Below the pieces are notes generated by a model. The model saw only the letters and a program-made list of their open reading frames with translations. It made no database searches and was not told the DNA's origin. A stretch of DNA of 64,000 nt. It comes from Escherichia coli (GTDB lineage Bacteria > Pseudomonadota > Gammaproteobacteria > Enterobacterales > Enterobacteriaceae). A program made the translations under genes and the position numbers. The stretch is taken from assembly GCF_046105845.1 (NCBI RefSeq), contig NZ_CP151004.1, one strand, 5' to 3'. Below are positions 1-45,067 of this stretch, piece after piece. Each line of letters begins with the position of its first letter. The stretch's first letter is position 1.

Positions 1-527
1 TTCTGCGCCTGGCGTTCTTTGGCCCATTTATTGGTGCCATCGCGCGGTCGGTTGGTGGTGCTATTTCCGATAAATTCGGCGGAGTGCGGGTGACGTTGAT
101 CAACTTCATTTTTATGGCGATTTTCAGCGCCCTGCTGTTCCTTACCTTACCGGGCACAGGCTCCGGTAATTTCATCGCATTTTACGCCGTATTTATGGGG
201 TTGTTTCTGACCGCAGGTCTGGGAAGTGGTTCTACTTTCCAGATGATCGCCGTCATCTTTCGCCAGATAACCATTTATCGGGTGAAGATGAAAGGCGGTA
301 GTGATGAGCAAGCTCAGAGAGAAGCCGTCACCGAAACGGCGGCGGCTCTGGGCTTTATCTCAGCCATTGGCGCAGTGGGCGGCTTTTTCATTCCGCAGGC
401 GTTTGGCATGTCGCTCAATATGACCGGCTCTCCGGTAGGCGCGATGAAAGTGTTTTTAATCTTCTACATCGTTTGTGTGCTGCTGACCTGGCTGGTTTAT
501 GGTCGGCGGAAGTTCAGCCAAAAATAA
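1..527 (+). CDS. narU: nitrate/nitrite transporter NarU, C-terminal part (5' end outside window)
   Basis: Open frame runs from the window edge to the stop at 525-527; hydrophobic MFS-like C-terminus; sits immediately upstream of narZ as in the narU-narZYWV locus. Confidence 0.85.
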   Translation, partial: LRLAFFGPFIGAIARSVGGAISDKFGGVRVTLINFIFMAIFSALLFLTLPGTGSGNFIAFYAVFMGLFLTAGLGSGSTFQMIAVIFRQITIYRVKMKGGSDEQAQREAVTETAAALGFISAIGAVGGFFIPQAFGMSLNMTGSPVGAMKVFLIFYIVCVLLTWLVYGRRKFSQK

Positions 528-621
528 GAGATCGATGCCTGACACGTCTTATCAGGCTACAACCGTGTCGCACCCGACAAGGCATCAGATCCCAATTCAT
601 TCCTGGAGCAGGAGTTATGTC

Positions 622-3600
622 ATGAGTAAACTTTTGGATCGCTTTCGCTATTTCAAACAAAAGGGCGAAACCTTTGCCGATGGTCACGGACAGGTGATGC
701 ATAGCAACCGCGACTGGGAGGACAGCTATCGCCAGCGTTGGCAATTCGACAAAATCGTGCGTTCCACCCACGGTGTTAACTGTACAGGCTCCTGTAGCTG
801 GAAAATCTACGTTAAAAATGGTCTGGTGACCTGGGAAATCCAACAGACCGACTACCCGCGCACTCGCCCTGACCTGCCCAATCATGAACCTCGCGGCTGC
901 CCGCGTGGCGCAAGTTACTCCTGGTATCTTTACAGCGCTAACCGCCTGAAATACCCGCTCATTCGCAAACGACTGATTGAACTGTGGCGCGAAGCCCTCA
1001 AACAACACAGCGATCCGGTACTGGCGTGGGCATCGATTATGAACGATCCGCAAAAGTGCCTGAGCTACAAACAAGTGCGTGGGCGCGGCGGGTTTATCCG
1101 CTCCAACTGGCAGGAACTAAACCAGCTGATTGCCGCCGCTAACGTCTGGACCATCAAAACCTACGGCCCGGATCGCGTTGCCGGTTTCTCGCCGATCCCG
1201 GCGATGTCGATGGTTTCTTACGCCGCCGGAACACGTTATCTTTCACTATTAGGTGGCACCTGTTTAAGCTTCTACGACTGGTATTGCGACCTGCCGCCCG
1301 CCTCGCCGATGACCTGGGGCGAGCAAACCGACGTGCCAGAATCTGCCGACTGGTATAACTCCAGCTACATCATCGCCTGGGGGTCTAACGTACCGCAGAC
1401 ACGTACGCCGGACGCCCACTTCTTTACCGAAGTACGCTACAAAGGCACTAAAACCATCGCCATTACCCCTGACTACTCTGAAGTGGCCAAATTGTGCGAC
1501 CAGTGGCTGGCACCAAAACAAGGCACTGATAGCGCCTTGGCGATGGCAATGGGCCATGTGATTTTAAAAGAGTTTCATCTCGATAATCCCAGCGACTACT
1601 TTATCAACTACTGCCGCCGCTACAGCGACATGCCGATGCTGGTAATGCTGGAACCTCGCGACGATGGCAGCTACGTACCCGGGCGCATGATCCGCGCGTC
1701 TGACCTGGTAGATGGACTGGGCGAAAGCAACAATCCGCAGTGGAAAACCGTGGCGGTTAATACCGCAGGTGAACTGGTGGTGCCGAACGGTTCGATTGGT
1801 TTTCGCTGGGGAGAAAAAGGCAAATGGAATCTGGAATCTATTGCCGCCGGTACGGAAACCGAATTGTCATTAACCCTGCTTGGTCAACATGACGCCGTTG
1901 CAGGCGTGGCCTTCCCCTACTTTGGCGGCATTGAAAATCCGCATTTTCGTAGCGTAAAACATGATCCTGTCCTGGTGCGTCAATTACCCGTTAAAAACCT
2001 GACATTAGCCGATGGCAGCACCTGTCCGGTGGTTAGCGTTTATGATTTGGTACTGGCGAATTATGGCCTCGATCGCGGGCTGGAAGATGAAAACAGCGCG
2101 AAAGATTACGCTGAAATCAAACCGTACACCCCAGCCTGGGGTGAGCAAATTACCGGCGTGCCGCGCCAGTATATTGAAACCATCGCCCGTGAATTTGCCG
2201 ATACCGCCCATAAAACGCATGGGCGCTCGATGATTATCCTCGGTGCTGGCGTCAACCATTGGTATCACATGGACATGAACTACCGTGGGATGATCAACAT
2301 GCTGATCTTCTGCGGTTGTGTCGGGCAAAGCGGTGGCGGCTGGGCACACTATGTCGGTCAGGAAAAACTGCGCCCGCAAACCGGCTGGTTGCCACTGGCC
2401 TTTGCGCTCGACTGGAACCGACCACCGCGCCAGATGAACAGCACCTCGTTTTTCTACAATCATTCCAGCCAATGGCGCTATGAAAAAGTCTCTGCTCAGG
2501 AGTTACTTTCACCGATCGCCGATGCCAGTAAGTACAGCGGTCATCTGATTGATTTCAACGTTCGCGCCGAACGTATGGGCTGGCTACCTTCTGCGCCGCA
2601 GCTGGGGCGTAACCCGCTCGGGATTAAAGCTGAAGCCGACAAGGCCGGATTATCCCCCACAGAATTTACCGCCCAGGCGCTGAAATCGGGCGATTTACGC
2701 ATGGCCTGCGAACAACCAGATAGCGGCAGCAATCATCCGCGTAATTTGTTTGTCTGGCGTTCTAACCTGCTTGGCTCCTCCGGCAAAGGCCACGAGTATA
2801 TGCAGAAGTATCTGCTGGGGACCGAAAGCGGGATTCAGGGCGAGGAACTCGGTGCCAGCGACGGGATCAAACCGGAAGAAGTCGAGTGGCAAACTGCGGC
2901 GATTGAAGGCAAGCTCGACCTGCTGGTGACGCTCGACTTCCGTATGTCCAGTACCTGCCTGTTCTCCGATATCGTTCTGCCCACCGCCACCTGGTACGAA
3001 AAAGACGATATGAACACCTCGGATATGCATCCGTTTATTCATCCGCTTTCTGCGGCGGTCGATCCGGCGTGGGAATCACGCAGCGACTGGGAAATCTACA
3101 AAGGTATCGCCAAAGCCTTTTCGCAAGTGTGCGTGGGCCATCTTGGCAAAGAAACCGACGTGGTATTACAACCACTGCTGCATGACTCTCCGGCAGAACT
3201 CTCACAGCCGTGTGAAGTGCTCGACTGGCGCAAAGGCGAATGCGATCTGATTCCAGGTAAAACTGCGCCCAATATTGTGGCGGTGGAACGCGACTACCCT
3301 GCTACCTATGAACGCTTTACCTCGCTCGGGCCATTGATGGACAAACTTGGCAACGGCGGTAAAGGGATTTCGTGGAATACCCAGGATGAAATCGATTTCC
3401 TCGGCAAACTCAACTACACCAAGCGTGAAGGCCCGGCACAGGGGCGTCCGCTGATTGACACCGCCATTGACGCATCAGAAGTGATTCTGGCGCTGGCACC
3501 GGAAACCAACGGTCATGTTGCAGTCAAAGCGTGGCAGGCGCTGGGCGAGATAACCGGACGCGAACATACCCATCTGGCGCTGCACAAAGAGGACGAGAAG

Positions 3601-4362
3601 ATTCGCTTTCGCGATATTCAGGCGCAGCCACGTAAAATCATCTCCAGCCCCACATGGTCTGGTCTGGAAAGCGATCACGTCTCCTACAACGCCGGATATA
3701 CCAACGTTCATGAGTTAATTCCGTGGCGCACGCTGTCGGGACGCCAGCAGCTCTATCAGGATCATCCGTGGATGCGTGCTTTTGGTGAAAGCCTGGTGGC
3801 TTATCGCCCGCCTATCGACACCCGTAGCGTCAGTGAAATGCGCCAGATACCGCCAAACGGCTTCCCGGAAAAAGCACTTAACTTCCTGACGCCGCATCAG
3901 AAATGGGGCATTCACTCAACCTACAGTGAAAACCTGCTAATGCTGACCCTCTCTCGCGGTGGACCGATTGTCTGGATCAGCGAAACCGATGCCCGTGAAC
4001 TGACCATTGTCGATAACGACTGGGTGGAAGTGTTTAACGCCAACGGCGCGCTGACTGCCCGCGCGGTGGTCAGCCAACGTGTACCGCCGGGTATGACCAT
4101 GATGTATCACGCTCAGGAACGCATTATGAATATTCCTGGTTCGGAAGTAACTGGCATGCGCGGCGGCATTCATAACTCGGTCACCCGCGTTTGTCCGAAA
4201 CCAACGCATATGATTGGCGGTTACGCGCAGCTGGCCTGGGGCTTTAATTACTACGGCACCGTCGGCTCGAACCGTGACGAATTCATCATGATCCGCAAGA
4301 TGAAGAACGTTAACTGGCTGGATGATGAAGGTCGCGATCAGGTACAGGAGGCGAAAAAATGA
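622..4362 (+). CDS. narZ: respiratory nitrate reductase 2 (NRZ) alpha subunit, molybdoenzyme
   Basis: Track ORF 499..4362; true start taken at internal ATG (MSKLLDRFRYF...) giving 1246 aa; N-terminal HGVNCTGSCSW Fe-S motif typical of NarG/NarZ; stop overlaps narY start (ATGA). Confidence 0.95.
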   Translation: MSKLLDRFRYFKQKGETFADGHGQVMHSNRDWEDSYRQRWQFDKIVRSTHGVNCTGSCSWKIYVKNGLVTWEIQQTDYPRTRPDLPNHEPRGCPRGASYSWYLYSANRLKYPLIRKRLIELWREALKQHSDPVLAWASIMNDPQKCLSYKQVRGRGGFIRSNWQELNQLIAAANVWTIKTYGPDRVAGFSPIPAMSMVSYAAGTRYLSLLGGTCLSFYDWYCDLPPASPMTWGEQTDVPESADWYNSSYIIAWGSNVPQTRTPDAHFFTEVRYKGTKTIAITPDYSEVAKLCDQWLAPKQGTDSALAMAMGHVILKEFHLDNPSDYFINYCRRYSDMPMLVMLEPRDDGSYVPGRMIRASDLVDGLGESNNPQWKTVAVNTAGELVVPNGSIGFRWGEKGKWNLESIAAGTETELSLTLLGQHDAVAGVAFPYFGGIENPHFRSVKHDPVLVRQLPVKNLTLADGSTCPVVSVYDLVLANYGLDRGLEDENSAKDYAEIKPYTPAWGEQITGVPRQYIETIAREFADTAHKTHGRSMIILGAGVNHWYHMDMNYRGMINMLIFCGCVGQSGGGWAHYVGQEKLRPQTGWLPLAFALDWNRPPRQMNSTSFFYNHSSQWRYEKVSAQELLSPIADASKYSGHLIDFNVRAERMGWLPSAPQLGRNPLGIKAEADKAGLSPTEFTAQALKSGDLRMACEQPDSGSNHPRNLFVWRSNLLGSSGKGHEYMQKYLLGTESGIQGEELGASDGIKPEEVEWQTAAIEGKLDLLVTLDFRMSSTCLFSDIVLPTATWYEKDDMNTSDMHPFIHPLSAAVDPAWESRSDWEIYKGIAKAFSQVCVGHLGKETDVVLQPLLHDSPAELSQPCEVLDWRKGECDLIPGKTAPNIVAVERDYPATYERFTSLGPLMDKLGNGGKGISWNTQDEIDFLGKLNYTKREGPAQGRPLIDTAIDASEVILALAPETNGHVAVKAWQALGEITGREHTHLALHKEDEKIRFRDIQAQPRKIISSPTWSGLESDHVSYNAGYTNVHELIPWRTLSGRQQLYQDHPWMRAFGESLVAYRPPIDTRSVSEMRQIPPNGFPEKALNFLTPHQKWGIHSTYSENLLMLTLSRGGPIVWISETDARELTIVDNDWVEVFNANGALTARAVVSQRVPPGMTMMYHAQERIMNIPGSEVTGMRGGIHNSVTRVCPKPTHMIGGYAQLAWGFNYYGTVGSNRDEFIMIRKMKNVNWLDDEGRDQVQEAKK

Positions 4363-5903
4363 AAATACGTTCGCAAGTCGGCATGGTGCTTAACCTCGAT
4401 AAATGTATCGGCTGCCATACCTGTTCGGTGACCTGTAAAAACGTCTGGACCGGACGCGAAGGCATGGAGTACGCATGGTTTAACAACGTCGAAACCAAAC
4501 CGGGCATTGGTTATCCGAAAAACTGGGAAGATCAGGAAGAGTGGCAAGGCGGCTGGGTGCGTGATGTGAATGGCAAGATCCGCCCGCGTCTGGGCAGCAA
4601 GATGGGCGTAATAACCAAAATCTTCGCCAACCCGGTGGTGCCGCAGATTGATGATTACTACGAACCTTTCACCTTCGACTACGAACATTTGCATAGCGCA
4701 CCGGAAGGCAAACATATCCCTACTGCTCGCCCGCGTTCACTGATTGACGGCAAACGGATGGACAAAGTGATCTGGGGGCCAAACTGGGAAGAACTGCTGG
4801 GCGGCGAATTTGAAAAACGCGCCCGCGACCGCAACTTCGAGGCCATGCAAAAGGAGATGTACGGGCAGTTTGAAAACACCTTCATGATGTACCTGCCGCG
4901 CTTGTGCGAACACTGCCTCAATCCCAGTTGCGTGGCGACCTGCCCAAGCGGCGCTATCTACAAACGCGAAGAAGACGGCATTGTGCTGATCGATCAGGAT
5001 AAATGCCGTGGCTGGCGTTTGTGCATTAGCGGTTGTCCGTACAAAAAAATCTACTTCAACTGGAAAAGCGGCAAGTCAGAAAAATGTATCTTCTGTTACC
5101 CACGAATTGAGTCAGGCCAACCCACCGTGTGCTCAGAAACCTGCGTGGGTCGCATCCGGTATCTGGGCGTGCTGCTTTACGACGCCGACCGCATCGAGGA
5201 AGCGGCGAGCACCGAGCGCGAAGTTGACCTCTATGAACGCCAGTGCGAAGTGTTCCTCGATCCGCACGATCCCTCAGTGATCGAAGAAGCCCTGAAACAA
5301 GGTATTCCACAAAACGTGATTGAAGCTGCCCAGCGTTCGCCAGTCTACAAAATGGCGATGGACTGGAAACTGGCGTTACCGCTGCACCCTGAATACCGCA
5401 CCCTGCCGATGGTCTGGTACGTTCCTCCGCTGTCACCGATTCAGTCTTACGCTGATGCGGGCGGTTTGCCGAAAAGCGAAGGCGTGCTCCCAGCCATCGA
5501 GAGCCTGCGTATTCCTGTGCAATATCTCGCCAATATGTTAAGTGCTGGCGATACCGGTCCGGTACTGCGGGCGCTAAAACGGATGATGGCGATGCGCCAC
5601 TATATGCGTTCACAAACCGTGGAAGGCGTTACCGATACCCGCGCCATTGACGAAGTAGGCCTGAGCGTCGCCCAGGTCGAAGAGATGTATCGCTACCTCG
5701 CCATTGCCAACTATGAAGACCGTTTTGTCATTCCAACCAGTCATCGGGAAATGGCGGGCGATGCCTTCGCAGAACGCAATGGCTGCGGTTTTACCTTTGG
5801 CGACGGTTGCCACGGCTCGGACAGCAAATTCAACCTGTTCAACAGTAGCCGTATCGATGCCATCAACATCACCGAAGTGCGCGACAAAGCGGAGGGCGAA
5901 TAA
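4359..5903 (+). CDS. narY: respiratory nitrate reductase 2 beta subunit (Fe-S)
   Basis: 514-aa ORF with four ferredoxin-type Cys clusters (CIGCHTCSVTC, CEHCLNPSCVATCP, CRGWRLCISGCPYKK, CIFCYPRIESGQPTVCSETCVGR). Confidence 0.95.
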   Translation: MKIRSQVGMVLNLDKCIGCHTCSVTCKNVWTGREGMEYAWFNNVETKPGIGYPKNWEDQEEWQGGWVRDVNGKIRPRLGSKMGVITKIFANPVVPQIDDYYEPFTFDYEHLHSAPEGKHIPTARPRSLIDGKRMDKVIWGPNWEELLGGEFEKRARDRNFEAMQKEMYGQFENTFMMYLPRLCEHCLNPSCVATCPSGAIYKREEDGIVLIDQDKCRGWRLCISGCPYKKIYFNWKSGKSEKCIFCYPRIESGQPTVCSETCVGRIRYLGVLLYDADRIEEAASTEREVDLYERQCEVFLDPHDPSVIEEALKQGIPQNVIEAAQRSPVYKMAMDWKLALPLHPEYRTLPMVWYVPPLSPIQSYADAGGLPKSEGVLPAIESLRIPVQYLANMLSAGDTGPVLRALKRMMAMRHYMRSQTVEGVTDTRAIDEVGLSVAQVEEMYRYLAIANYEDRFVIPTSHREMAGDAFAERNGCGFTFGDGCHGSDSKFNLFNSSRIDAINITEVRDKAEGE

Positions 5904-6598
5904 TGCAGATCCTCAAAGTGATCGGCCTGTTGATGGAGTATCCGGACGAGCTGTTGTGGGAATGTAAGGAGGACGCGCTGGCGTTGATCCGCCGCGACGC
6001 ACCGATGCTTACGGATTTTACCCGCAACCTGCTTAACGCGCCGCTGCTGGATAAACAGGCCGAATGGTGCGAAGTGTTTGACCGTGGACGTACCACATCG
6101 CTGCTGCTGTTCGAACATGTTCATGCCGAGTCCCGCGATCGCGGCCAGGCAATGGTGGACCTGCTGGCGGAGTATGAAAAGGTCGGCCTGCAGTTGGATT
6201 GTCGAGAACTGCCCGATTATCTGCCGCTGTATCTGGAGTACTTAAGCGTACTGCCGGACGATCAGGCGAAAGAAGGCTTGCTCAACGTTGCGCCGATCCT
6301 CGCCCTGCTTGGCGGACGCTTAAAACAACGCGAGGCTCCGTGGTATTCGTTGTTTGACGCCCTGCTGCATCTGGCGGGAAGTACACTTTCAAGTGACAGT
6401 GTCACAAAACAAGTAAACAACGAGGAGCGCGATGACACCCGCCAGGCGCTTGATGCAGTGTGGGAAGAGGAGCAGGTGAAGTTTATTGAAGATAACGCCA
6501 CGGCGTGTGACAGCTCGCCGCTTAATCAATATCAGCGACGCTTTAGCCAGGATGTCGCGCCGCAATATGTCGACATCAGTGCGGGAGGTGGGAAATGA
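5903..6598 (+). CDS. narW: nitrate reductase 2 assembly chaperone (NarJ-like delta subunit)
   Basis: 231-aa ORF; 1-nt overlap (TAATG) with narY and 4-nt overlap with narV; position in operon. Confidence 0.9.
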
Positions 6599-7275
6599 TT
6601 CAGTATCTGAACGTCTTTTTTTATGATATCTACCCGTACATTTGTGCGACAGTGTTTTTCCTCGGCAGCTGGCTGCGCTACGACTACGGGCAGTATACCT
6701 GGCGCGCCTCCTCGAGTCAGATGCTCGATAAACGCGGGATGGTGATATGGTCGAATCTGTTCCATATCGGCATTTTGGGGATTTTCTTCGGGCACCTGTT
6801 CGGCATGTTAACGCCGCACTGGATGTACGCGTGGTTTTTGCCAGTGGCAGCGAAACAACTAATGGCGATGGTGCTCGGCGGTATTTGCGGTGTGTTGACG
6901 TTGATTGGCAGCGCAGGACTGCTGTGGCGCAGGCTGACTAATCAGCGTGTGCGTGCCACTTCCACTACGCCGGATATTATCATCATGAGCATTTTGCTGA
7001 TCCAGTGTCTGCTGGGGCTAAGTACCATACCGTTTTCAGCACAGTATCCTGATGGTAGCGAAATGATGAAGCTGGTGGGTTGGGCGCAAAGCATTGTCAC
7101 TTTCCGTGGTGGATCGTCAGAGATGCTCAACGGCGTAGCGTTCGTCTTCCGCTTGCATCTGGTGTTGGGAATGACCATCTTCCTGCTCTTCCCGTTCACC
7201 AGACTGGTGCATGTGTGGAGCGCGCCGTTTGAGTACTTTACTCGTCGGTATCAGATTGTGCGTTCGCGGCGATAA
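6595..7275 (+). CDS. narV: nitrate reductase 2 gamma subunit (cytochrome b, membrane anchor)
   Basis: 226-aa polytopic membrane ORF with conserved His residues; last gene of the narZYWV operon. Confidence 0.9.
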
Positions 7276-7354
7276 TTTTCACCCTGGCCGGATAGCCCTT
7301 CGCTCTCCGGCCACTTGCAGGCTATGATAGTTCTCCAGCCACAGGAGAACGTTA

Positions 7355-8248
7355 ATGAAACCGCAGGTTTACCACGTCGATGCTTTTACCTCACAACCGT
7401 TTCGCGGCAATTCTGCCGGTGTTGTTTTCCCCGCCGATAATCTCAGTGAAGCGCAAATGCAGCTTATCGCCCGCGAATTAGGTCATTCCGAAACTGCTTT
7501 TCTGCTGCACAGCGACGACAGCGATGTGCGCATCCGCTACTTTACGCCAACAGTTGAAGTGCCGATTTGTGGTCACGCGACAGTAGCTGCGCACTATGTA
7601 CGTGCGAAGGTGTTAGGTTTAGGAAATTGCACGGTCTGGCAAACGTCACTGGCAGGAAAACATCGCGTGACTATCGAAAATCACAATGATGATTATCGTA
7701 TTTCACTGGAACAAGGTCCGCCGGGCTTTGAACCGCCGCTGGAGGATGAAGTACGCGCGGCGATTATCAACGCATTGCATCTTACTGAAGACGATATTCT
7801 GCCGGGTTTGCCGATCCAGGTCGCGACGACCGGGCATTCTAAAGTGATGATCCCGTTGAAGCCGGAAGTGGATATCGACGCTCTTTCGCCTGACCTTAAT
7901 GCGCTGACCGCTATCAGTAAACAGATTGGCTGCAATGGTTTCTTCCCGTTCCAGATCCGCCCAGGCAAAAACGAAACCGACGGTCGTATGTTCTCGCCTG
8001 CGATTGGTATTGTGGAAGATCCGGTGACTGGCAATGCCAATGGCCCGATGGGTGCATGGTTGGTACATCACAACGTATTGCCCCACGATGGCAACGTGTT
8101 GTGTGTTAAAGGCCATCAGGGGCGCGCATTGGGGCGTGACGGCGTGATTGAAGTAACGGTGACAATTCGCGATAACCAACCGGAGAAAGTCACCATTTCT
8201 GGCACAGCGGTGATTTTGTTTCATGCCGAATGGGCAATTGAATTCTGA
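7355..8248 (+). CDS. yddE: PhzF-family isomerase-like protein
   Basis: 297-aa ORF; PhzF/DAP-epimerase-like fold recognised from sequence; synteny next to narV. Confidence 0.85.
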   Translation: MKPQVYHVDAFTSQPFRGNSAGVVFPADNLSEAQMQLIARELGHSETAFLLHSDDSDVRIRYFTPTVEVPICGHATVAAHYVRAKVLGLGNCTVWQTSLAGKHRVTIENHNDDYRISLEQGPPGFEPPLEDEVRAAIINALHLTEDDILPGLPIQVATTGHSKVMIPLKPEVDIDALSPDLNALTAISKQIGCNGFFPFQIRPGKNETDGRMFSPAIGIVEDPVTGNANGPMGAWLVHHNVLPHDGNVLCVKGHQGRALGRDGVIEVTVTIRDNQPEKVTISGTAVILFHAEWAIEF

Positions 8249-8255
8249 AACCGTT

Positions 8256-8323
8256 GCCTGATGCGCTTCGCTTATCAGGTCTATGTATGCCGGATAAGGC
8301 GTTTACGCCGCATCCGGCAACCT
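8256..8323. repeat. REP (repetitive extragenic palindromic) element pair
   Basis: Intergenic imperfect palindromes gcctgatgcg...cttatcagg and gccggataaggcgtttacgccgcatccggca match the enterobacterial REP consensus. Confidence 0.7.
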
Positions 8324-8331
8324 GACATAAA

Positions 8332-9177
8332 TTATTTTCCCGCCTCCGGGTGCGTATCAAACGCCGCCATCACCAGCGCTAACTCATCCACGGTAAAGCC
8401 ATGTTTCGCATCATCCACCCCCAGACCAAACTGTTCCTGCATCACGGCATATAACGACGCCACATCTGGTAGATTTCGCTGTTCCACCGCGTGCCCATTT
8501 TCATAATGGGTAAAATGAAAATTGGTCAGTGTCAGCTTGCCGCCGTCCGGCAAATGGCGGCACATCAGCAAATGATGGCGAAAATGCGACTGCGGCCAGT
8601 GCGCAGACCAGAAATTGCCCATTACATAATCGCTTTGTTGCTGCTCGCAGAGATCAAAACGGTACATCGACTGCCAGTGCTGATGATGATTAAACTGCAA
8701 CACCCAATCATCACCCTCCTGTAACAACCGATACTCTCCGTGTGGCGTGATCTGCACGAGATCGGGAACTAAACGAATCGGCGCGGTTAGCGTCTGTCCA
8801 CCGAAACCGACATCAGCAATCCATTTTTCCCCTTCCAGTTCCACCAACAGCAAACGATGGGTGCGCGGCGGTAATGCTGGCGGATTTGATAACACTACGC
8901 GCCCTAACAAGCTGCGAACGTTAAACCCCAGCTCGCGTAACACCCGCTCAAACACGCCATTCTGCTCAAAACAGTAACCGCCACGACGGGCTATCACCAG
9001 TTTCTCTTCCAGCGATTGATCATCAAGCTGTATTTCCCTCGGCAGCAAAACGTCGAGGTTTTCAAATGGAATGGTGCAATTGTGTTTCAGGTGCAATGCA
9101 CGAAGCGTATCAATATTGACCGCAGCAGCTCCCGACCAGTTAATACGGGCAAAATAGTGATTCAGAATGGGCGTCAT
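8332..9177 (-). CDS. nhoA: arylamine N-acetyltransferase (N-hydroxyarylamine O-acetyltransferase)
   Basis: 281-aa ORF; NAT-family sequence (…GGYCFEQNGVF… with catalytic Cys); synteny. Confidence 0.9.
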   Translation of the reverse strand: MTPILNHYFARINWSGAAAVNIDTLRALHLKHNCTIPFENLDVLLPREIQLDDQSLEEKLVIARRGGYCFEQNGVFERVLRELGFNVRSLLGRVVLSNPPALPPRTHRLLLVELEGEKWIADVGFGGQTLTAPIRLVPDLVQITPHGEYRLLQEGDDWVLQFNHHQHWQSMYRFDLCEQQQSDYVMGNFWSAHWPQSHFRHHLLMCRHLPDGGKLTLTNFHFTHYENGHAVEQRNLPDVASLYAVMQEQFGLGVDDAKHGFTVDELALVMAAFDTHPEAGK

Positions 9178-9349
9178 CAGGCGTTTCCCTTAGTGGTTTT
9201 CTCAACTTATAACCTGGAATAGACGCCGCACCGGCTATTTTGTGCGATCGCGGACATGCATCACGTTTGCAAATCGCCAATCCCGTTAATTTCGTTACTT
9301 ATTGCGTTACGGACTACGCTTAAAAAAACCTTCTTCGCGAGGCGATACC

Positions 9350-9919
9350 ATGAGCCGATTTATCCCCGTCGAATTACACCATGCCAGCCGTCTGTTAAAT
9401 CATGGCGCAACTGTCATGATCACCAGTTTCGATGAGCAATCCCAGCGGCGTAACATTATGGCAGCAGCCTGGTCAATGCCGGTGGAGTTTGAACCGCCAC
9501 GTGTGGCGATTGTGGTAGATAAATCGACATGGACCAGGGAGTTGATTGAACGTAATGGTAAGTTTGGCATCGTTATCCCGGGTGTTGCAGCAACTAACTG
9601 GACGTGGGCGGTGGGAAGTGTGTCGGGGCGTGATGAAGATAAGTTTAATTGCTATGGTATTCCGGTTGTGAAAGGTCCGGTGCTTGGTTTGCCGCTGGTC
9701 GAGGAAAAATGTCTGGCGTGGATGGAGTGTCGCCTGCTACCTGCGACTTCTGCGCAAGAAAAATACGACACACTGTTTGGCGAGGTAGTATCAGCAGCGG
9801 CAGACGCACGGGTATTTGTCGAAGGCCGCTGGCAGTTTGATGATGATAAACTCAATACACTACATCATTTAGGTGCTGGCACGTTTGTTACCAGCGGCAA
9901 GCGTATTACCGCTGGCTAA
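9350..9919 (+). CDS. yddH: flavin reductase-like domain protein
   Basis: Track ORF 9302..9919; start placed at internal ATG (MSRFIPVELHH...) giving 189 aa; flavin-reductase-like fold. Confidence 0.8.
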   Translation: MSRFIPVELHHASRLLNHGATVMITSFDEQSQRRNIMAAAWSMPVEFEPPRVAIVVDKSTWTRELIERNGKFGIVIPGVAATNWTWAVGSVSGRDEDKFNCYGIPVVKGPVLGLPLVEEKCLAWMECRLLPATSAQEKYDTLFGEVVSAAADARVFVEGRWQFDDDKLNTLHHLGAGTFVTSGKRITAG

Positions 9920-9984
9920 AGAATCATATGCAGCGACCGGTTTTTTAAGCAATGTTTCCATATGAGTTAAAAGCACATTTTATT

Positions 9985-10140
9985 TCACGATTGTATATTC
10001 TTAGTGAAGATTAATTTATCCTCACCAACATCATAGTAATTGCGTATTATAGCTTCATTGATAAAGCCCTGTTTTGTATAAAATGCGCGGGCGGCACTAA
10101 AATCGATATGGCTGGAGGTCTCTACTAAAAGTAGTCTTGC
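9985..10140 (-). pseudogene. GNAT (RimI-like) acetyltransferase, C-terminal remnant only
   Basis: Minus-strand open frame without start codon translates to ...RLLLVETSSHIDFSAARAFYTKQGFINEAIIRNYYDVGEDKLIFTKNIQS*, matching the C-terminal acetyl-CoA-binding end of RimI-like GNATs; lies in an AT-rich tract. Confidence 0.45.
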
Positions 10141-10531
10141 GTGATTGGGACAGGTCAAGAAAAAGCAGTTTTGCAGTTTTTTATTTCAGGGCACAGTTGC
10201 GAAAATTGAATCCCTTATGGACTAATGTGAGAAAATTCCGAGGTATGACTGTTTTGATATAGTGGACAATCAAGCGTCTCGAATTAACAATGAATTTCAG
10301 GTGCCAAGCCTTACAATTTGTAGCATGACGGATATAGGACAACATTAGGAAATCGGACAGAAAATTCATCATAATAAAATGACAACTTATCTCTTTCTCT
10401 CACTTTCTGAGAAATTTCACAAAAGTATAAACTAAGCCAATATGCCTTTATATATAAAAAATACTCATGCTTATTTTTATCGGAAAAATCCAAAATTTTG
10501 TCAAGACCATCAAAAATATCTTTATCATGAT

Positions 10532-11448
10532 CTATATGTACTCTTGATGATGGATCGCTGTGGCGAACTTTTCTGCGGTTAAATCAGCAGAACTGATATA
10601 ATATCTGACCGTCATTTCTGGCTCTTTCTTTTGTTCTGCTATTATGGACCGAAAGGAGACTGCAACGCATAATTTCTTCAGTCCTTTCCATTCAAACGTG
10701 AAATCAATAAGTTCATCAGGGACATCGCAAACAATATGAAGACGGATTTCTTCTCTGCCGTGACTCTTTTCACTAATGGCGTAACTGTCATGTTCTGGAT
10801 TATTTAATTCTTTCAGTGGAAATTTTTCCTCAAAGGCTTTATTAAGCCGCCCCTGATTTCCTTTTACAGCGAATAAATAATCACCGCCCTGTTTTGTATC
10901 TTCTCTGCAATATCTTTCTGGCAACCCATCGCATCAGTTGTGATGATTTTTCCTTTAATATCCAGCATGTTAAGAAGTTCAGGGATAGCTGTAATTTCAT
11001 TGGATTTCTCATCCGTCCTGATCTGTCCGATGACCAGACTGTGCATTGTTGAGAACGCACTAATGACATGAATCGCTCCCTTGCGGCGACTCTTGTCATA
11101 AGAATGCCGGAGTGTTTTTCCATCAATTGCGATGACGTCTTTATCATCTGAAGAATGGCAGTCACGCATCCAGTTAATAAAGCACTCGTGAAATTTTGCA
11201 GGACTGATACAGGATACAACTCTGGCAATGGTATCGTGAACAGGAATACCATTATCAAAATTACCATATTGCTTCAAAAAATCGAGATGTGTTTCCCCAA
11301 AATCCTCTATATCTTCCCAGCCTTCTGCACCCGAAATAACGGCACAAATAGTCAACAGTAGAATATCCGATAATTTATGTTCCACTTTCCAGGCTTGTCT
11401 GTAATCGGGGATAATAGAAATATGTCCCATCAATTTTTTAAGTTCCAT
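10532..11448 (-). mobile_element. H-repeat-associated (ISAs1-family) transposase pseudogene, frameshifted and 3'-truncated (YdcC-like)
   Basis: Two overlapping minus-strand ORFs (10864..11448 and 10532..10924) together read [32 protein letters not shown]... and ...[27 protein letters not shown]..., characteristic of H-repeat proteins; a frameshift near 10890-10920 and loss of about the last 75 codons; surrounded by AT-rich sequence. Confidence 0.8.
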
Positions 11449-11836
11449 TTTGTTCTCCTTAATTATGTAAGGAGTATTTGATCATGTATAAGCAATAAAA
11501 ACAGCTTCAGGAAATAAGGAATATCGCAATTTTTAAACATAAAATGCGAATCGTTCAATACAAAAAAGCAGCGTTGCGTAATCTTTCCCTGATTAAATAC
11601 GCTACCGCCCTACCCTGATGACATGATCTGCACTGCACTATCATATCGACATGTTTCTCTACATGCGAAAAGATGTTTTATTTTTGGATTATATTAAATT
11701 GATATTTCATATAAAAAACGAAATTACATCAATCATATAAATAGTTGTACCAACTTTAATTACTATTCATAGCAAACAAATGGATATCCAGTTAACTACG
11801 CCAGTGATTCATTAACATTAACCTCCGGCATTATTG

Positions 11837-12454
11837 TTAAATAATTTCATTCCTTTTTAATACTTCTTGTAATTTCGGTAACTGACATACAGCATCAGCA
11901 ATCGCACTGATATTCGTAGCATTATCCTGAAACCATTCATGCCCCGGCCCCCATGTGCGCATGGTGCAGAGATAACAGTCCACCAGCGTTAGTTGCTCAC
12001 CAAAGGCATAAGGTTCAGCGGTCAATTGTGAATTCAGCCAGATATAAAGCGATTTGCGATATTCAATTACATTCCTCTTTAACTGTTCAGGCGCGTCAGG
12101 AGCCCAACGCTCAGGGTAATCGGCGAAAGTGAATGTTGGATAGACATTAGCAACCAGCCAGACCAATAGCCGTTGAAACTGCTGACGTTCGGCGCGCCCA
12201 AGCGGTGGCGCAAGGTCCGGGCGACGATCGAGAACCATCAATGCAATCGCCGCTGTCTCCGTCATAATCTCGTCATTTTCCAGCGCCAGTGTCGGAATCT
12301 GACACAACGGGTTCAGGGTTTTCAATAACTCGCGTGAAGTTCCCTCGTGGTCAAAACCACTGACATCAACGAACTGATAAGGAATATCAGCCAGTGTTAG
12401 CATCAGCTCACTGATTGTAGAGCCCCATCCGGGTACGCCATACACCTTAATCAT
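11837..12454 (-). CDS. yncG: glutathione S-transferase-like protein
   Basis: 205-aa ORF with GST N- and C-terminal domain features; synteny upstream of ansP. Confidence 0.85.
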   Translation of the reverse strand: MIKVYGVPGWGSTISELMLTLADIPYQFVDVSGFDHEGTSRELLKTLNPLCQIPTLALENDEIMTETAAIALMVLDRRPDLAPPLGRAERQQFQRLLVWLVANVYPTFTFADYPERWAPDAPEQLKRNVIEYRKSLYIWLNSQLTAEPYAFGEQLTLVDCYLCTMRTWGPGHEWFQDNATNISAIADAVCQLPKLQEVLKRNEII

Positions 12455-12720
12455 ATGTCCCTCACAATCTTTTAAAGATTAAGTGTAGGACAGTACACAG
12501 GTTAACCAGCAAAAGGATTTGTCATTTTTTCGTCAGTTGTATTATTCCCCTTCAGGATTGTAAGGGGATGTTTTGCATCGTTTATCGATAACGGGTAGGA
12601 TGCTGCGCCGATAGTTTTATACCCATAAAGAATAATGGTGATAACTATCATCGCCAGGATGAATAAACATTGTTCATGGCAACTTATATGACTTTTTCAT
12701 TAAAGCAATCAGGGAGAGCA

Positions 12721-20375: not shown

Positions 20376-20821
20376 ATCAGTCGCTTACCCTTGCTTTTTT
20401 GATTGCCGCCGGAATTGGTCTGGTAGTCCAGAACACGTTGATGGTGCGCATCACCCAGACCTCCTCTACCATTCTCATCGCCATGTTGCTGAACTCTTTG
20501 GTAGGAATTGTGCTGTTCGTTTCTATTTTATGGTTTAAACAAGGCATGGCGGGGTTTGGCGAACTGGTGTCCAGCGTGCGCTGGTGGACACTTATACCTG
20601 GCTTGCTGGGATCGTTTTTTGTCTTCGCCAGTATCAGCGGATATCAGAATGTGGGAGCGGCGACAACTATTGCGGTACTGGTCGCCAGCCAGCTGATTGG
20701 CGGTCTGGTGCTGGATATCTTCCGCAGCCATGGCGTACCACTACGGGCGTTGATCGGCCCAATTTGTGGCGCAATTTTACTTGTGGTTGGTGCCTGGCTG
20801 GTGGCCAGGCGCACATTTTAA
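20372..20821 (+). CDS. ydcZ: inner-membrane protein, DUF606 family
   Basis: 149-aa hydrophobic ORF overlapping the mnaT stop by 4 nt. Confidence 0.8.
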   Translation: MNQSLTLAFLIAAGIGLVVQNTLMVRITQTSSTILIAMLLNSLVGIVLFVSILWFKQGMAGFGELVSSVRWWTLIPGLLGSFFVFASISGYQNVGAATTIAVLVASQLIGGLVLDIFRSHGVPLRALIGPICGAILLVVGAWLVARRTF

Positions 20822-23941: not shown

Positions 23942-24872
23942 CGAACGCTCCCAGACGTTTCACGAACGCCAGGTACAGTGCGATGAGAACAATCGGCACC
24001 AGGGTGAATGCCGCCGCCATCGGCATATTGCCAATCGCTCCCTGCTGGGAATAAACCATATTGCCGATAAAATATCCTGGAGGGCCAACCAGCTGCGGAA
24101 CAATAAAATCGCCCAGTGTGAGTGAAAAGGTAAAGATAGAGCCAGCGGCAATACCAGGGATTGCCAGCGGCAGCACCACATAGCGAAAGGTTTGCCGTGG
24201 ACGCGCGCCAAGATCAGCCGACGCCTGCAACAATGACGGCGGCAAACGCTCAAGCGCCGCCTGCACGGGCAGGATCATGAACGGCAGCCAGATATAGAGA
24301 AACACCAGAAAGCGCCCCAGCCCGGAAGTTGACAGCGTATTGCCGCCCACCGCAGGTAATGTAAGGAACGCAGTCAGCAGTGGTTCCAGCCCAAGATGTT
24401 GTAAAAACCACTGAGCCACGCCATCTTTTGCCAGCAATAACGTCCAGGCATAGGCTTTAACAATGTAGCTCGCCCACATCGGCAACATTACCGCAATATA
24501 AAAAAACGCTTTCATTTTCCCGCTGGTATAGCGCGCCATATACCACGCCATTGGAAAAGCCAGAATGGCGCTGGCGATAGTGACTGCCACAGCCATAGTC
24601 AGCGTGCGGAGAATGATGTCGTAATTCGCCGGATTAAACAGCGCACGGATATTCGCCAGCGTCAGTTCCGGCGTTACCGACATGGTGAAATCGTCAAAGG
24701 TATAAAATCCCTGCCATAACAGTGTCAGCAGCGAGCCGAAATAGACAATGCCAAACCACATTAGCGGGCCAAGCAGCAGTAAAAACAGCCCCAGCCCCGG
24801 ATTACGCCAGAAGAAACCGGACACCTTACCCAGACCTGGACGTGAAGGTGATTGCAATACATTCATCGCCAT
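23931..24872 (-). CDS. ydcU: ABC transporter permease (polyamine-type)
   Basis: 313-aa permease ORF directly downstream of ydcT. Confidence 0.85.
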
Positions 24873-25886
24873 TCACCTCTCCTCAACCAGCGGCACCATC
24901 ACATCACGCGACCAGGAAACCATCACCTGTTGTCCGGGCGTGAGCGTGGCAGGCAGTTCTTCGCCTGTCATATTGGCCTGACTCACCAGCAGTTTTTCAC
25001 CGCCGTTCAGTCTCAGTTCAAAACGAGTTGCCGCTCCCTGATATTGCACTGCCTGGATCGTGCCATTAGCCTGCACTTCGCCGGGGGTGTTGAAGCGGAT
25101 ATGTTCCGGTCGCAGGGCGAAGCTTCCCGTCATGCCACAAAGTTTCTCTGCCATCAGTCCATCAAAAACATTCGATGTACCAACGAACCCGGCAACAAAC
25201 GGCGTGCGCGGGCGCATATAGAGATCGCGCGGGGAATCGACCTGCTCAATGCGTCCATTATTGAAAACCGCAACACGATCAGACATCGATAACGCTTCGC
25301 CCTGATCGTGGGTAACGAAGATAAAAGTGATACCGAGAGACTGTTGCAGCTTTTTCAGTTCCAGTTGCATCTGCTCACGCAATTTGAGATCCAGCGCGCC
25401 GAGCGGTTCATCCAACAGCAATACGCGCGGTTCATTCACCAGTGCTCTGGCAATAGCAACCCGTTGGCGCTGACCACCAGAAAGTTGTGACGGTTTACGT
25501 TGCTGTACAAACCCCAACGCCACTTTCTCCAGCGCCTCTTGCGCCATCGCATGCCGCTGTTTTTTATCCACGCCTTTGACCATCAGCCCGTAGGCGACGT
25601 TGTCAAGAATCGACATATGCGGAAATAGCGCGTAGTCCTGAAAGACGGTATTCACGTCCCGCTCCCACGGTGGCAGATTGCTGGCGGGTTTACCAAAGAT
25701 AGAGATAGCCCCGCCGGAAAGCTGTTCGAATCCGGCAATCAGGCGCAGGCAGGTGGTTTTGCCGGAACCGGACGGCCCCAGCATAGAGAAGAACTCACCA
25801 TCTTTTATCGCAATACTGACGCCATCTACTGCGCGCACGTCACCGTACAACCGCGAGACGTTATCAAACTCCACTGCGTACGTCAT
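24873..25886 (-). CDS. ydcT: ABC transporter ATP-binding protein
   Basis: 337-aa ORF with Walker A (GPSGSGKTT), signature (LSGGQRQRV) and Walker B motifs. Confidence 0.9.
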   Translation of the reverse strand: MTYAVEFDNVSRLYGDVRAVDGVSIAIKDGEFFSMLGPSGSGKTTCLRLIAGFEQLSGGAISIFGKPASNLPPWERDVNTVFQDYALFPHMSILDNVAYGLMVKGVDKKQRHAMAQEALEKVALGFVQQRKPSQLSGGQRQRVAIARALVNEPRVLLLDEPLGALDLKLREQMQLELKKLQQSLGITFIFVTHDQGEALSMSDRVAVFNNGRIEQVDSPRDLYMRPRTPFVAGFVGTSNVFDGLMAEKLCGMTGSFALRPEHIRFNTPGEVQANGTIQAVQYQGAATRFELRLNGGEKLLVSQANMTGEELPATLTPGQQVMVSWSRDVMVPLVEER

Positions 25887-34355: not shown

Positions 34356-34949
34356 TCATTTTTTACGTGCCAGCATCGTGGCGAAACGCAGTTTAATACG
34401 ATTACCGTTGGCGTCGGTGCGGTGCAGCTCGCCGACGTCTTCATTGTATTTCACCCTCTCCCAGCCTTCGTAATATCGACGTAATTCTCCCTCTTTGAAG
34501 GCAAACGGGAAGCCGACGGTACATGGATAATCAGCGGTATCCATCGCCGCCACAATCAGGTTGTAACCGCCAGGTTTCGTGCAACGTTGCATATTGGCAA
34601 TCAGCCCTGGGATGGTTTTAGCCTCAAGGAACATCAGCACCACAGTCGAAATAATAAAATCGTACTGTCCATCAAATGTGAGGTTATTCAGATCAACGAC
34701 CCGGGTGTGTAAATTATCCAGATTTTCAATGGACTTAATGCGCTCGACGTTGGCGATACTCATGGCATTTTTATCCCATGCGTCAACATCATAACCATTG
34801 GCTGCCAGGTAAAGACTGTTACGACCATTGCCACAGCCCAGATCCAGCGTTTTACCCGGTTTAACCACTTTCACCGCTTCCAGCACTTCAGAGTGTGTGC
34901 GGGTTAATTCATATTTATCAGTAAAATAGTTTTCATCACGAATGATCAT
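34356..34949 (-). CDS. tehB: tellurite resistance SAM-dependent methyltransferase
   Basis: 197-aa ORF with SAM-binding motif ([15 protein letters not shown]); overlaps tehA stop. Confidence 0.9.
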
Positions 34950-35938
34950 TCTTTGTCCTCTGCTTTCATTAAAACGGCGCGCTCGGTTCTGACTAACAAT
35001 TTTCCCTGCATCAGAAGCGCAAAAGTACGGATGAGCAGTATTGCAATAATAAAATTGGTAAAGATAAACAGCGGCACCGCCAGCGTATGGAAAAATCCAT
35101 TATCGCTGCCACTCCCCAGATGCAAACCGGTGGTTGCCAGTGCAGATACGCCGAACGAGAAACTCCAGAATGAAGCATTAAATGGCTGGGAGAGATACCA
35201 TGGCATCAGACGTAGCATAAACAGCAGTTGCAGCAGTCCATAACCGAAAAGCATTTTCGCCAGCGTGTCACCCTCGCCGCCGTTGACGCTCAGCCAGGCA
35301 CTACAGGCCACCAGCGCAGGAGCGAGCTGAATGCCGAGTGATGTCCGCAGCGCCGTGGGTAATTCTCCCGAACTGCGCAGACGCTGCAAGATCACCGGTT
35401 CAAGGCTTAGCCATGAGAAAACGCCTGCGCCTAAAAACACCAGACCGGCGTCGGTGTAGCCCAACGCACCACAGGCCATTGCGCTGATAAAGTTGTTGGC
35501 AACTGTCGGCAGATACAGTCCAGGCGTGGTAGCTTCTTCAGGATGAGATCCGCGCCATAATCCCGCAGTTTGCCAGGCGGCATAAGCCAACTGTACAACG
35601 ACACCAAAACTGAACAGGCATACCGCCAGTGGGCGAAACCACGGAACAAAACCAATCGCCACCAGCATCGTCGTTGCCGGAAACAAACTCACAAAACTGC
35701 TCAGCACTGGATGGCGAACTTCCGCCAGCACGCTATGCGGAAAGCGTATGAGTCGGGTAATAAATGCGCTAGTCAATAATCCCCAGATGATCATCGCCAG
35801 AATCACCAGCCCATCCCCTAACCAGTGGCTGACCTGCCAAACCTGGCTGGCATAGCGCCAGGCAAATCCCATCCCTATCGTCCCCAACACAATACCAAAG
35901 TAGCCTGCCGGCAAATTGAGCACTTTATCGCTCTGCAT
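34946..35938 (-). CDS. tehA: tellurite resistance / C4-dicarboxylate transporter family membrane protein
   Basis: Track ORF 34946..36046; start at internal [15 protein letters not shown]... gives 330 aa; 10-TM protein. Confidence 0.9.
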
Positions 35939-36061
35939 CTTCTTACTCATTTTGTTTAATTTATAAAGTATATTTGAAATGCATTTTATGGAATTTTCTC
36001 GAGCATAGCCAGAGCCGCAGAATTTGCTACGGTTATAGTAAGTCACCTGTGGGAAAACGCT

Positions 36062-44041: not shown

Positions 44042-44329
44042 TACCGTTGTCTCTCTTCCAGGTTTACTCCTGATAGAAAGTCATCGGCACTTGACGGTAA
44101 TTTCTTACGACCAAAAACCTCTTTGCGTCACATTTTTACAACAATTATGGCAGAGAAGATTAATGCCATTGGAATGAAGAGAGTAACGAATGATTAAACT
44201 GGCTAAACCGAATGACGAAAAATTCTGGAAAACAGCACGCAATTTCGTCAGGTGATTATTTTCGTCCCTAAGGAAACCACATAGGATGCTCACGGGTGCC
44301 TGAGACTTTCTGTTTTCAGGCTAACCGGG

Positions 44330-44381
44330 AATCAGAAAGACGAAGGCCCCGACCGATATTTCTATCAACCGAGGCCAACGA

Positions 44382-44400
<19 letters not shown>
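44330..44400 (-). ncRNA. sokB: predicted Sok-type antisense RNA against the mokB/hokB leader (coordinates approximate)
   Basis: Inferred from hok/sok locus architecture: the antisense regulator overlaps the mok translation-initiation region (mokB ATG at 44382). Not verified at nucleotide level. Confidence 0.3.
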
Positions 44401-44589
<189 letters not shown>

Positions 44590-45003: not shown

Positions 45004-45067
45004 CTTCCGATGTAGGCCCGTATTCTTCGCCTGTACCACGGGTCGGTTTTAGTACAGGCGTTTTCTT
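45004..45067 (+). ncRNA. rydC: Hfq-dependent small RNA RydC
   Basis: Sequence cttccgatgtaggcccgtattcttcgcctgtaccacgggtcggttttagtacaggcgttttctt matches the RydC sRNA as I recall it, including the pseudoknot-forming 5' region and a 3' terminator hairpin (cgcctgtac...gtacaggcg + U-run); lies between ydcA and cybB. Confidence 0.75.

Follow-up and report, generated by a model that had tools for sequence, protein, structure and literature searches.

Short spacing between genes is common in Escherichia coli: 24% of same-strand gene pairs are spaced by −8 to +6 nt, and such short spacing is 4.5-fold enriched among pairs whose products belong to the same complex (249 short-spaced versus 111 long-spaced) (Huber et al., 2023; PMC10666635). 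Because such spacing is frequent, especially in complex-encoding pairs, three successive overlaps in the operon of an enzyme complex are unremarkable. For the membrane-bound nitrate reductases in particular, a survey of ~350 species gave a median NarG–NarH spacing of −1 nt (quartiles −4 to +12, n = 366) and a median NarH–NarJ spacing of −1 nt (quartiles −4 to +2, n = 353), and Supplementary Table S2 of the same study lists the exact K-12 narZYWV pairs (−4, −1, −4) (Huber et al., 2023; PMC10666635). The two E. coli paralogs are described in the literature as differently regulated, with narGHJI activated by FNR and NarL, whereas narZYWV is expressed under stress and in stationary phase.

How translation is coupled in E. 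coli is disputed. Four of five native −4 pairs were coupled in experiment, and removal of the Shine–Dalgarno (SD) sequence lowered reinitiation by 60–100% in those four; the native −4 pair bioBF was uncoupled, and another tested pair showed ~40% de novo initiation (Huber et al.). Local structure has been proposed to be needed at coupled pairs for the suppression of de novo starts (Huber et al., 2019), although this is not an agreed defining feature. Ribosome profiling under RRF depletion has been used to argue against reinitiation as the main means of coupling in E. coli, overlapping pairs included (PMC7538156). Our literature search found no published experiments on translational coupling in narZYWV or narGHJI, and a full-text search found no reports of proportional synthesis together with coupling.

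Gene content and identity of the locus

The window analyzed here, 64,000 nt of E. coli DNA, contains near its 5′ end an alpha–beta–delta–gamma series of nitrate reductase genes on one strand, as read from the table of open reading frames and from NarG, NarH, NarJ-type, and NarI profile matches above their cut-offs. All four reading frames (narZ, narY, narW, and narV) are intact, as the open reading frame table and the sequence itself show. SD energies in the following list are those of the duplex with the 16S rRNA 3′ end.

1–527, + strand: narU (nitrate/nitrite transporter), truncated at the window edge so that its 3′ part remains; TAA stop at 525–527; matches positions 289–462 of 462 of the NarU profile NF011608; K-12 b1469 lies in the same place.
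534–586, no strand assigned: REP-like inverted repeat (GATGCCT...AAGGCATC) in the 94-nt narU–narZ spacer, from the sequence and from alignment with K-12, SC418, and pECTOK.
605–614, + strand: narZ SD region GGAGCAGGAG, with the ATG 7 nt further on; moderate strength (−6.9 kcal/mol).
622–4362, + strand: narZ, alpha subunit of nitrate reductase Z (NarG family, Mo-bisMGD catalytic subunit), 1246 aa; ATG at 622, TGA at 4360–4362; full-length match to TIGR01580 (narG) at 2333 bits (cut-off 1084).
4346–4351, + strand: narY SD AGGAGG within the final narZ codons (..Q-E-A-K-K-stop), 7 nt 5′ of the ATG; −12.3 kcal/mol.
4359–4362, + strand: narZ/narY junction ATGA (−4), with narY ATG 4359–4361 over narZ TGA 4360–4362 (context aaaaATGAaaa).
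4359–5903, + strand: narY, nitrate reductase Z beta (Fe-S) subunit, 514 aa; TAA at 5901–5903; TIGR01660 (narH), 981 bits, above cut-off.
5891–5896, + strand: narW SD GGAGGG within the narY 3′ end, 6 nt 5′ of the ATG; −10.0 kcal/mol.
5901–5905, + strand: narY/narW junction TAATG (−1), the last A of narY TAA 5901–5903 being the first base of narW ATG 5903–5905 (context gaaTAATGcag).
5903–6598, + strand: narW, NarJ-type molybdenum-cofactor assembly chaperone, 231 aa; TGA at 6596–6598; NF011628, 511 bits, above cut-off, positions 1–231 of 231.
6583–6590, + strand: narV SD GGGAGGTG within the narW 3′ end, 4 nt 5′ of the ATG; −15.1 kcal/mol, the strongest in the operon.
6595–6598, + strand: narW/narV junction ATGA (−4), with narV ATG 6595–6597 over narW TGA 6596–6598 (context ggaaATGAttc).
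6595–7275, + strand: narV, nitrate reductase Z gamma (membrane cytochrome b) subunit, 226 aa; TAA at 7273–7275; TIGR00351 (narI), 426 bits, above cut-off.
7355–8248, + strand: yddE (PhzF-family isomerase), starting 79 nt 3′ of narV with no overlap; NF007625, 549 bits; K-12 b1464.

The encoded proteins are 99.5, 99.6, 97.8, and 99.6% identical to K-12 NarZ, NarY, NarW, and NarV, and 79, 78, 56, and 71% identical to NarG, NarH, NarJ, and NarI, respectively; the best match of the narW product is the NarW-specific model NF011628. Judged by this closer likeness and by its place between narU and yddE, the operon is the Z paralog and not the A paralog, and we identify the locus as the ordinary narZYWV nitrate reductase Z operon of an Escherichia chromosome, as the gene names in the original prediction had it. 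Its span of 622–7275 runs exactly from the narZ start to the narV stop. A plasmid-borne origin, prompted by the 100% identity of NarY to plasmid copies, was rejected: the plasmid DNA is only ~97% identical, identity to chromosomes goes up to 98.9%, and synteny over the flanking 25 kb is chromosomal.

A scan of positions 1–7600 for promoter-like and terminator-like sites gave counts at or under shuffle expectation, with no promoter-like or + strand terminator-like site at the junctions beyond chance. An Rfam scan of the whole window returned no match within the narZYWV operon, and no tRNAs were found.

Junctions and start codons

Direct inspection of the junctions bears out, to the base, the predicted overlaps ATGA, TAATG, and ATGA (4, 1, and 4 nt). 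These overlaps depend on start codons that are not arbitrary, since profile alignments, structure alignments, and RefSeq annotation agree on them: the NCBIfam profiles for NarZ, NarY, NarW, and NarV begin aligning at residue 1–2 of each protein; NarY residues 1–506 pair with residues 1–506 of the solved NarH chain (1Q16_B), and NarV residues 2–225 pair with NarI 1–224 (1Q16_C); and the same four starts are used in the RefSeq annotation of K-12 and of five other Escherichia records. An in-frame ATG at 499 was considered as the narZ start and rejected; it lies inside narU, the profile alignment begins at the Met of 622, and all annotations use the equivalent of 622. The overlaps had been recorded as expected for this operon and without novelty, which is correct: the K-12 pairs were already tabulated, and the narZYWV overlaps are an already published, ordinary feature.

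Shine–Dalgarno sites and RNA structure at the junctions

Each downstream ATG has an SD 4–7 nt 5′ of it, within the last codons of the preceding gene. Strength was calculated as duplex energy with the 16S 3′ end in 22-nt windows, for which the operon background has a mean of −4.3 kcal/mol and 4.6% of windows lie at or below −9 kcal/mol; the internal sites of narY, narW, and narV (−10 to −15 kcal/mol) exceed that of the first gene. In both spacing (−8 to about +6 nt) and placement of the SD in the upstream gene, all three junctions have the features expected of translationally coupled overlapping pairs.

The same sites also admit a reading in which the genes are merely packed compactly: free 30S subunits would start each cistron at its own strong, exposed SD, the strength of each site would set relative outputs, and the −4 and −1 overlaps would persist through mutational accessibility and pressure for an SD near the stop codon, not through linked translation. 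The excess of the internal SDs over that of narZ fits this reading, as do the uncoupled bioBF and the genome-wide RRF-depletion data, which favor de novo initiation (PMC7538156). Yet most of the tested native E. coli −4 pairs are coupled, and at overlaps of 1–4 nt the terminating ribosome covers the next start, so that the two events would not be fully independent (argued in PMC12548453). We regard compact packing as the sole explanation as rather unlikely, though it deserves serious consideration.

Folding of 80-nt windows centered on the junctions, compared with dinucleotide shuffles, gave minimum free energies of −13.8, −17.6, and −14.5 kcal/mol for narZ/narY, narY/narW, and narW/narV (z = +0.81, +0.08, and +0.96, respectively). 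In these three windows there is no local structure masking the internal ribosome-binding sites beyond that of the shuffled controls; the SD is mostly unpaired in the predicted narY and narV folds, and the predicted pairing of the narW SD is a short, weak local stem. Local structure that would suppress de novo initiation, a proposed requirement for coupling, is accordingly not seen in the junction 80-mers. Junction RNAs that are no more structured than shuffles are again compatible with compact packing. They speak against a further mechanism, in which the downstream ribosome-binding sites would be buried, opened only by a ribosome translating the upstream gene, and then used for de novo starts by other ribosomes, as in atpHA and rplJL. 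Such unfolding has been documented as a way of coupling in E. coli, and it is the one favored by Saito et al., but the 80-nt junction windows, which cover local pairing, fold no better than their shuffles; in the absence of masking structure beyond these controls we rank it last, as a highly improbable account of narZYWV.

Conservation across nar operons

Conservation was judged from the published cross-phylum statistics and from 12 annotated plasmid or chromid operons. Junction geometry and junction sequences of narZYWV are constant in sampled E. coli alleles of 94.3–95.5% DNA identity, and 29 of 29 full-length, spread-sampled E. coli hits gave a single ungapped match of 2401 nt. The −4/−1/−4 arrangement also occurs in plasmid copies and in a Cronobacter copy; the junction sequences too are the same in a plasmid copy and, but for some substitutions in the SD regions, in Cronobacter. 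The narG-type arrangement is −4/−4/−1 in all copies from E. coli, Klebsiella, and Salmonella. Of 16 operons sampled across Proteobacteria, 12 have ATGA at the alpha/beta junction. The overlaps are thus non-random in the sense of being conserved. That both paralogous operons retain overlap despite two register-shifted junctions looks more like maintenance than accident, which counts against compact packing as the full explanation.

Gaps are nevertheless tolerated in orthologous operons, in keeping with compact packing: at the equivalent junctions, annotated nar operons have spacings of +11/+9/+4 nt in Thermus, +26/+54 nt in Caballeronia, and +297 nt in Moraxella. Since functional-looking nar operons with gaps of +4 to +297 nt exist, coupling is no requirement of this enzyme family.

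NarW and subunit stoichiometry

In the solved enzyme (1Q16) the only chains are alpha, beta, and gamma, NarJ having been solved separately; NarW matches the NarJ chaperone structure 8JZD. NarW is an assembly chaperone and not a subunit of the mature enzyme. Only narZ/narY joins two genes that both encode subunits, and Huber et al. (PMC10666635) scored both narY/narW and narW/narV as ‘CMPLX not.’ Because they involve the chaperone gene narW, these two junctions cannot concern subunit stoichiometry, and the proposal that the overlaps indicate stoichiometric co-translation of the NRZ complex was therefore overstated.

Translational coupling of narZYWV

The overlaps suggest, and do not prove, linked translation of narZYWV. 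The wording ‘complete translational coupling’ in the original prediction holds insofar as spacings of −4 and −1 belong to the class predictive of coupling; it goes too far in that an overlap is a statistical indicator only, with one of five tested native −4 pairs (bioBF) uncoupled.

We consider it likely that termination–reinitiation, or a site kept open at the overlap, positively links the translation of narZYWV, with some independent initiation besides. A ribosome ending narZ, narY, or narW would halt 1–4 nt from the next start with the SD still beneath its anti-SD, and could therefore restart there (termination–reinitiation), or would at least keep that start accessible to a fresh 30S subunit. 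In this way the four genes would be positively linked in their translation on a single mRNA. Because the downstream starts have strong, exposed SDs in unstructured RNA, some independent initiation is probable too and could uncouple the amounts, so that the expected outcome is coordinated output, not necessarily equimolar. At the two junctions flanking narW, linkage would couple the supply of chaperone to that of subunits and would not set subunit stoichiometry.

Past correct annotation, these textbook-style compact operon junctions matter little. The useful correction is that overlap predicts translational coupling and does not demonstrate it, and that independent initiation has scope at internal ribosome-binding sites that are strong and exposed.

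Comparison with known systems

In atpHA and rplJL, as in nar, adjacent cistrons of a complex lie on one mRNA; those pairs need inhibitory RNA structure and can yield unequal outputs, whereas no such structure is predicted at the nar junctions. The tested native E. coli −4 pairs hyfHI, astDB, ydbH/ynbE, as well as menDH (Huber et al., 2019, 2023) are closer in form, with ATGA and an SD in the upstream gene as in nar, and some of them likewise encode subunits of redox enzyme complexes. For these pairs coupling was measured, and local structure was predicted at the overlap of the coupled pairs; the nar junctions are known from sequence, and no such structure is evident.

The closest system is narZYWV of K-12 (b1468–b1465), which has the same gene order, the same lengths (3741, 1545, 696, and 681 nt), the same −4/−1/−4 junctions, and the same neighbors, narU and yddE. 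The 25 nt 5′ of each internal start are identical and there is no junction difference; the K-12 operon differs in its ~96.7% DNA identity across the junction-containing 2.4 kb and in a 13-nt indel in the narU–narZ spacer, where alignment with K-12, SC418, and pECTOK shows the window to be 13 nt longer than K-12.

The paralogous narGHJI operon (nitrate reductase A), proposed earlier as the comparison, shares the alpha–beta–chaperone–gamma order, and all three of its junctions overlap too, its alpha/beta junction being likewise ATGA, with AGGAG from conserved Gln–Glu codons. Its overlaps are 4/4/1 against 4/1/4 in narZYWV, which amounts to two junctions shifted by one codon; its internal SDs, at −6.5 to −9.5 kcal/mol, are weaker, and its proteins are 56–79% identical.

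The Z-type and G-type registers differ, and the internal SDs of narZYWV clearly surpass in strength both those of narGHJI and that of narZ itself. From these differences one could propose that selection actively maintains the overlap and that the Z operon is tuned for a higher ratio of beta, chaperone, and gamma to alpha than the A operon, which would be deliberately non-stoichiometric synthesis fitting a weakly expressed, stress-phase enzyme; we think this improbable. With their shared architecture, shifted registers, and differing SD strengths, the two nar paralogs form a convenient matched natural test pair for the disputed coupling mechanism.

Gene boundaries and junctions of narZYWV

The four products of the nitrate reductase Z (NRZ) operon score far above the curated cut-offs of the NCBIfam profiles for narG, narH, the NarW/NarJ chaperone model and narI, and NCBIfam identifies the flanking genes as narU (truncated by the window edge) and yddE. 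Identity to K-12 NarZ, NarY, NarW and NarV is 99.5, 99.6, 97.8 and 99.6%, versus 79, 78, 56 and 71% to NarG, NarH, NarJ and NarI of the paralogous nitrate reductase A. The ORF table and direct reading give four intact genes:

narZ, + strand: ATG at 622, TGA at 4360-4362; 1246 aa
narY, + strand: ATG at 4359, TAA at 5901-5903; 514 aa
narW, + strand: ATG at 5903, TGA at 6596-6598; 231 aa
narV, + strand: ATG at 6595, TAA at 7273-7275; 226 aa

The span of 622-7275 in the original prediction matches the narZ start to the narV stop exactly, and re-reading of the sequence bears out the overlaps proposed for all three junctions: 4 nt at narZ/narY (caggaggcgaaaaaATGAaaa), 1 nt at narY/narW (gcggagggcgaaTAATGcag), and 4 nt at narW/narV (gcgggaggtgggaaATGAttc). 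The narY and narV starts are backed by structure: residues 1-506 of NarY align with the same residues of the solved NarH chain, while residues 2-225 of NarV align with 1-224 of NarI, relative to which NarV has one additional residue following Met1. An in-frame ATG at 499, listed mechanically as the narZ start, was rejected; it sits within narU, the family profile begins at the Met of 622, and every annotation has a start equivalent to 622.

Overlaps in published data and in related operons

The overlaps are an already known, correct and ordinary observation: spacings of -4, -1 and -4 nt are explicit for K-12 in the E. coli table of Huber et al. (2023; PMC10666635). In that study, 707 of 2,987 same-strand E. 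coli pairs (24%) lie at -8 to +6 nt, and short spacing is 4.5-fold enriched in same-complex subunit pairs (249 short vs 111 long); given this base rate and enrichment, three overlaps are expected and not surprising, as the original prediction itself held. Overlapping or abutting same-strand neighbours elsewhere in the region likewise indicate that such junctions are common: two - strand ORFs of the window (34946-36046 and 34356-34949) share 4 nt at 34946-34949, and in a matching E. coli genome (L020) mnaT/ydcZ overlap by 4 nt (20595-20598), ydcU/ydcV by 11 nt (24155-24165), and ydcT/ydcU abut with a 0-nt gap (25096-25097).

Conservation within E. coli was assessed with a 2,401-nt query containing the three junctions, for which 30 spread hits were sampled from 5,415 matching records. 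Full-length, ungapped 2,401-nt matches made up 29 of these (99.4%-94.3% identity); the remaining hit is partial and on a plasmid record. The -4/-1/-4 annotation and the junction sequences are unchanged in three of the most divergent E. coli alleles, in a conjugative-plasmid copy and in an environmental isolate, and a narZ-type operon on a Cronobacter plasmid shares this geometry. Spacings of -4/-4/-1 characterise the narG-type operons in each of E. coli, Klebsiella and Salmonella; thus, both paralogues overlap at every junction in enterobacterial copies. The published spacings agree with this conservation, with medians of -1 nt for NarG-NarH (quartiles -4 to +12, n=366), NarH-NarJ (quartiles -4 to +2, n=353) and NarJ-NarI (Huber et al., 2023).

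Outside the enterobacteria, junction geometry is looser.

Annotated spacings (nt) of nar operons outside the enterobacteria, in the order alpha/beta, beta/chaperone, chaperone/gamma; negative values are overlaps, positive values gaps
Tistrella: -4, +4, -1
Ralstonia: -4, -1, +7
Paracoccus: -4, -4, +13
Methylovirgula: -4, -1, +12
Rhodococcus: -1, -4, +4
Streptomyces: +1, -4, -1
Thermus: +11, +9, +4
Caballeronia: -4, +26, +54
Moraxella: +297, +1, -4

The alpha/beta ATGA is the best conserved junction (12 of 16 operons), and among the operons sampled only enterobacterial ones overlap at three of three junctions, Streptomyces being the nearest other case. The gaps in related operons imply that the enzyme does not require overlap. 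The 297-nt narG-narH insert of Moraxella osloensis pMOSL2 (L007 4704-5000), at the position of the ATGA overlap of most Proteobacteria, carries inverted repeats (ccccaccccaaccctcccc ... gggggagttagagggggtt) and resembles a short mobile or repetitive element.

Translation initiation signals and probable coupling

Upstream of each internal start, the final codons of the preceding gene contain a strong Shine-Dalgarno (SD) site:

4346-4351, + strand: narY SD, AGGAGG, 7 nt 5' of the start; -12.3 kcal/mol
5891-5896, + strand: narW SD, GGAGGG, 6 nt 5' of the start; -10.0 kcal/mol
6583-6590, + strand: narV SD, GGGAGGTG, 4 nt 5' of the start; -15.1 kcal/mol

The SD of narZ itself is weaker (-6.9 kcal/mol), and only 4.6% of 22-nt windows within the operon reach -9. 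The predicted folds of junction-centred 80-nt windows are no more stable than those of dinucleotide shuffles (z = +0.81, +0.08 and +0.96), so there is no sign of a hairpin hiding the ribosome-binding sites. Consensus scans of the junctions found no promoter-like or + strand terminator-like sites above shuffle expectation, and Rfam and tRNA scans gave no match inside the operon.

Of five native E. coli -4 pairs assayed, four were coupled, one of these with ~40% de novo initiation, and bioBF was wholly uncoupled; SD removal cut reinitiation by 60-100% in coupled pairs (PMC6728339). Coupling drops steeply with spacing (PMC10666635). On RRF depletion, ribosome density ratios of neighbouring genes were unchanged, overlapping pairs included, and the authors considered reinitiation not dominant, favouring structure melting and de novo initiation (PMC7538156); a 2025 review regards the coupling mechanism as not firmly established (PMC12548453). 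Our literature search found no experiment on coupling of nar genes. Since the overlap class is predictive of coupling, translation of the narZYWV genes is likely to be positively linked to some degree. SD-assisted termination-reinitiation would be the most probable route, probably accompanied by a measure of independent initiation.

Of the 'complete translational coupling' originally predicted, the overlaps are real and of a predictive class, but 'complete' exceeds the evidence, as the strong, exposed SDs would permit independent starts; local structure, suggested as needed to suppress de novo starts (Huber et al., 2019; PMC6728339), is not seen at these junctions. The further claim of stoichiometric co-translation of the NRZ complex also exceeds the evidence, because narW, which borders two of the three junctions, is a chaperone gene and not a subunit gene: NarW is a NarJ-type assembly chaperone, the solved enzyme comprises alpha, beta and gamma only, NarJ is described in a literature review as a maturation chaperone, and narY/narW and narW/narV are marked as not complex-forming (Huber et al., 2023). 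The potential for independent starts, the chaperone role of NarW and the gapped relatives together make both terms overstated. Tuning of the Z operon to non-equimolar output has a low probability.

Genomic context

The window represents part of an Escherichia chromosome, with the synteny yddE-nhoA-yddH ... ansP-yncE-pqqU-mcbR-curA ... patD-ydcVUTS-ydcR-hicAB-rlhA; a plasmid origin was rejected on identity and synteny. Among 5,426 complete E. coli genomes, the top identity to window 1-32000 is only 98.9% in the nar region and 97.5% in the next 25 kb. Such divergence is unusual within E. coli chromosomes and suggests an Escherichia lineage that is cryptic or poorly sampled. Environmental isolates, from sediment and soil, give the best nar-region matches. 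The best-matching E. coli genomes have an extra ~8 kb between yddH and yncG/ansP (L020 3000-12700), with an RHS core protein, ISAs1 transposases and, in some, vgrG; the window lacks this block (about 9900-12700).

The block fdnG-yddG-(narU)-narZYWV-yddE-nhoA-yddH-pptA (window 1-9200) also occurs, ~97% identical, on ~40 large plasmids of E. coli and E. fergusonii (e.g., pECTOK-001_1, NZ_AP018396.1), many poultry-derived and at least one typed as conjugative; evidently, plasmids have captured a terminus-region respiratory gene block. The narU-narZ spacer (528-621) contains a REP-like inverted repeat (534-586) that is 13 nt longer in the window and isolate SC418 than in K-12 and pECTOK. Rfam detects a sok-type antitoxin RNA (44294-44445, 110 bits) and the sRNA RydC (45004-45067, 90 bits), both expected in this part of the E. 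coli genome.

Comparison with K-12 and narGHJI

K-12 narZYWV (b1468-b1465) has the same gene lengths and annotated overlaps as the window, and the same 25 nt preceding each internal start. In narGHJI, by comparison, two junctions differ in register by one codon, the additional residue of NarV relative to NarI being an example, and the internal SDs (-7.4, -6.5 and -9.5 kcal/mol) are clearly weaker than those of narZYWV (-10 to -15 kcal/mol). This contrast between paralogues, 4/1/4 with strong SDs versus 4/4/1 with weaker SDs, could provide a natural test bed for the disputed coupling mechanism.
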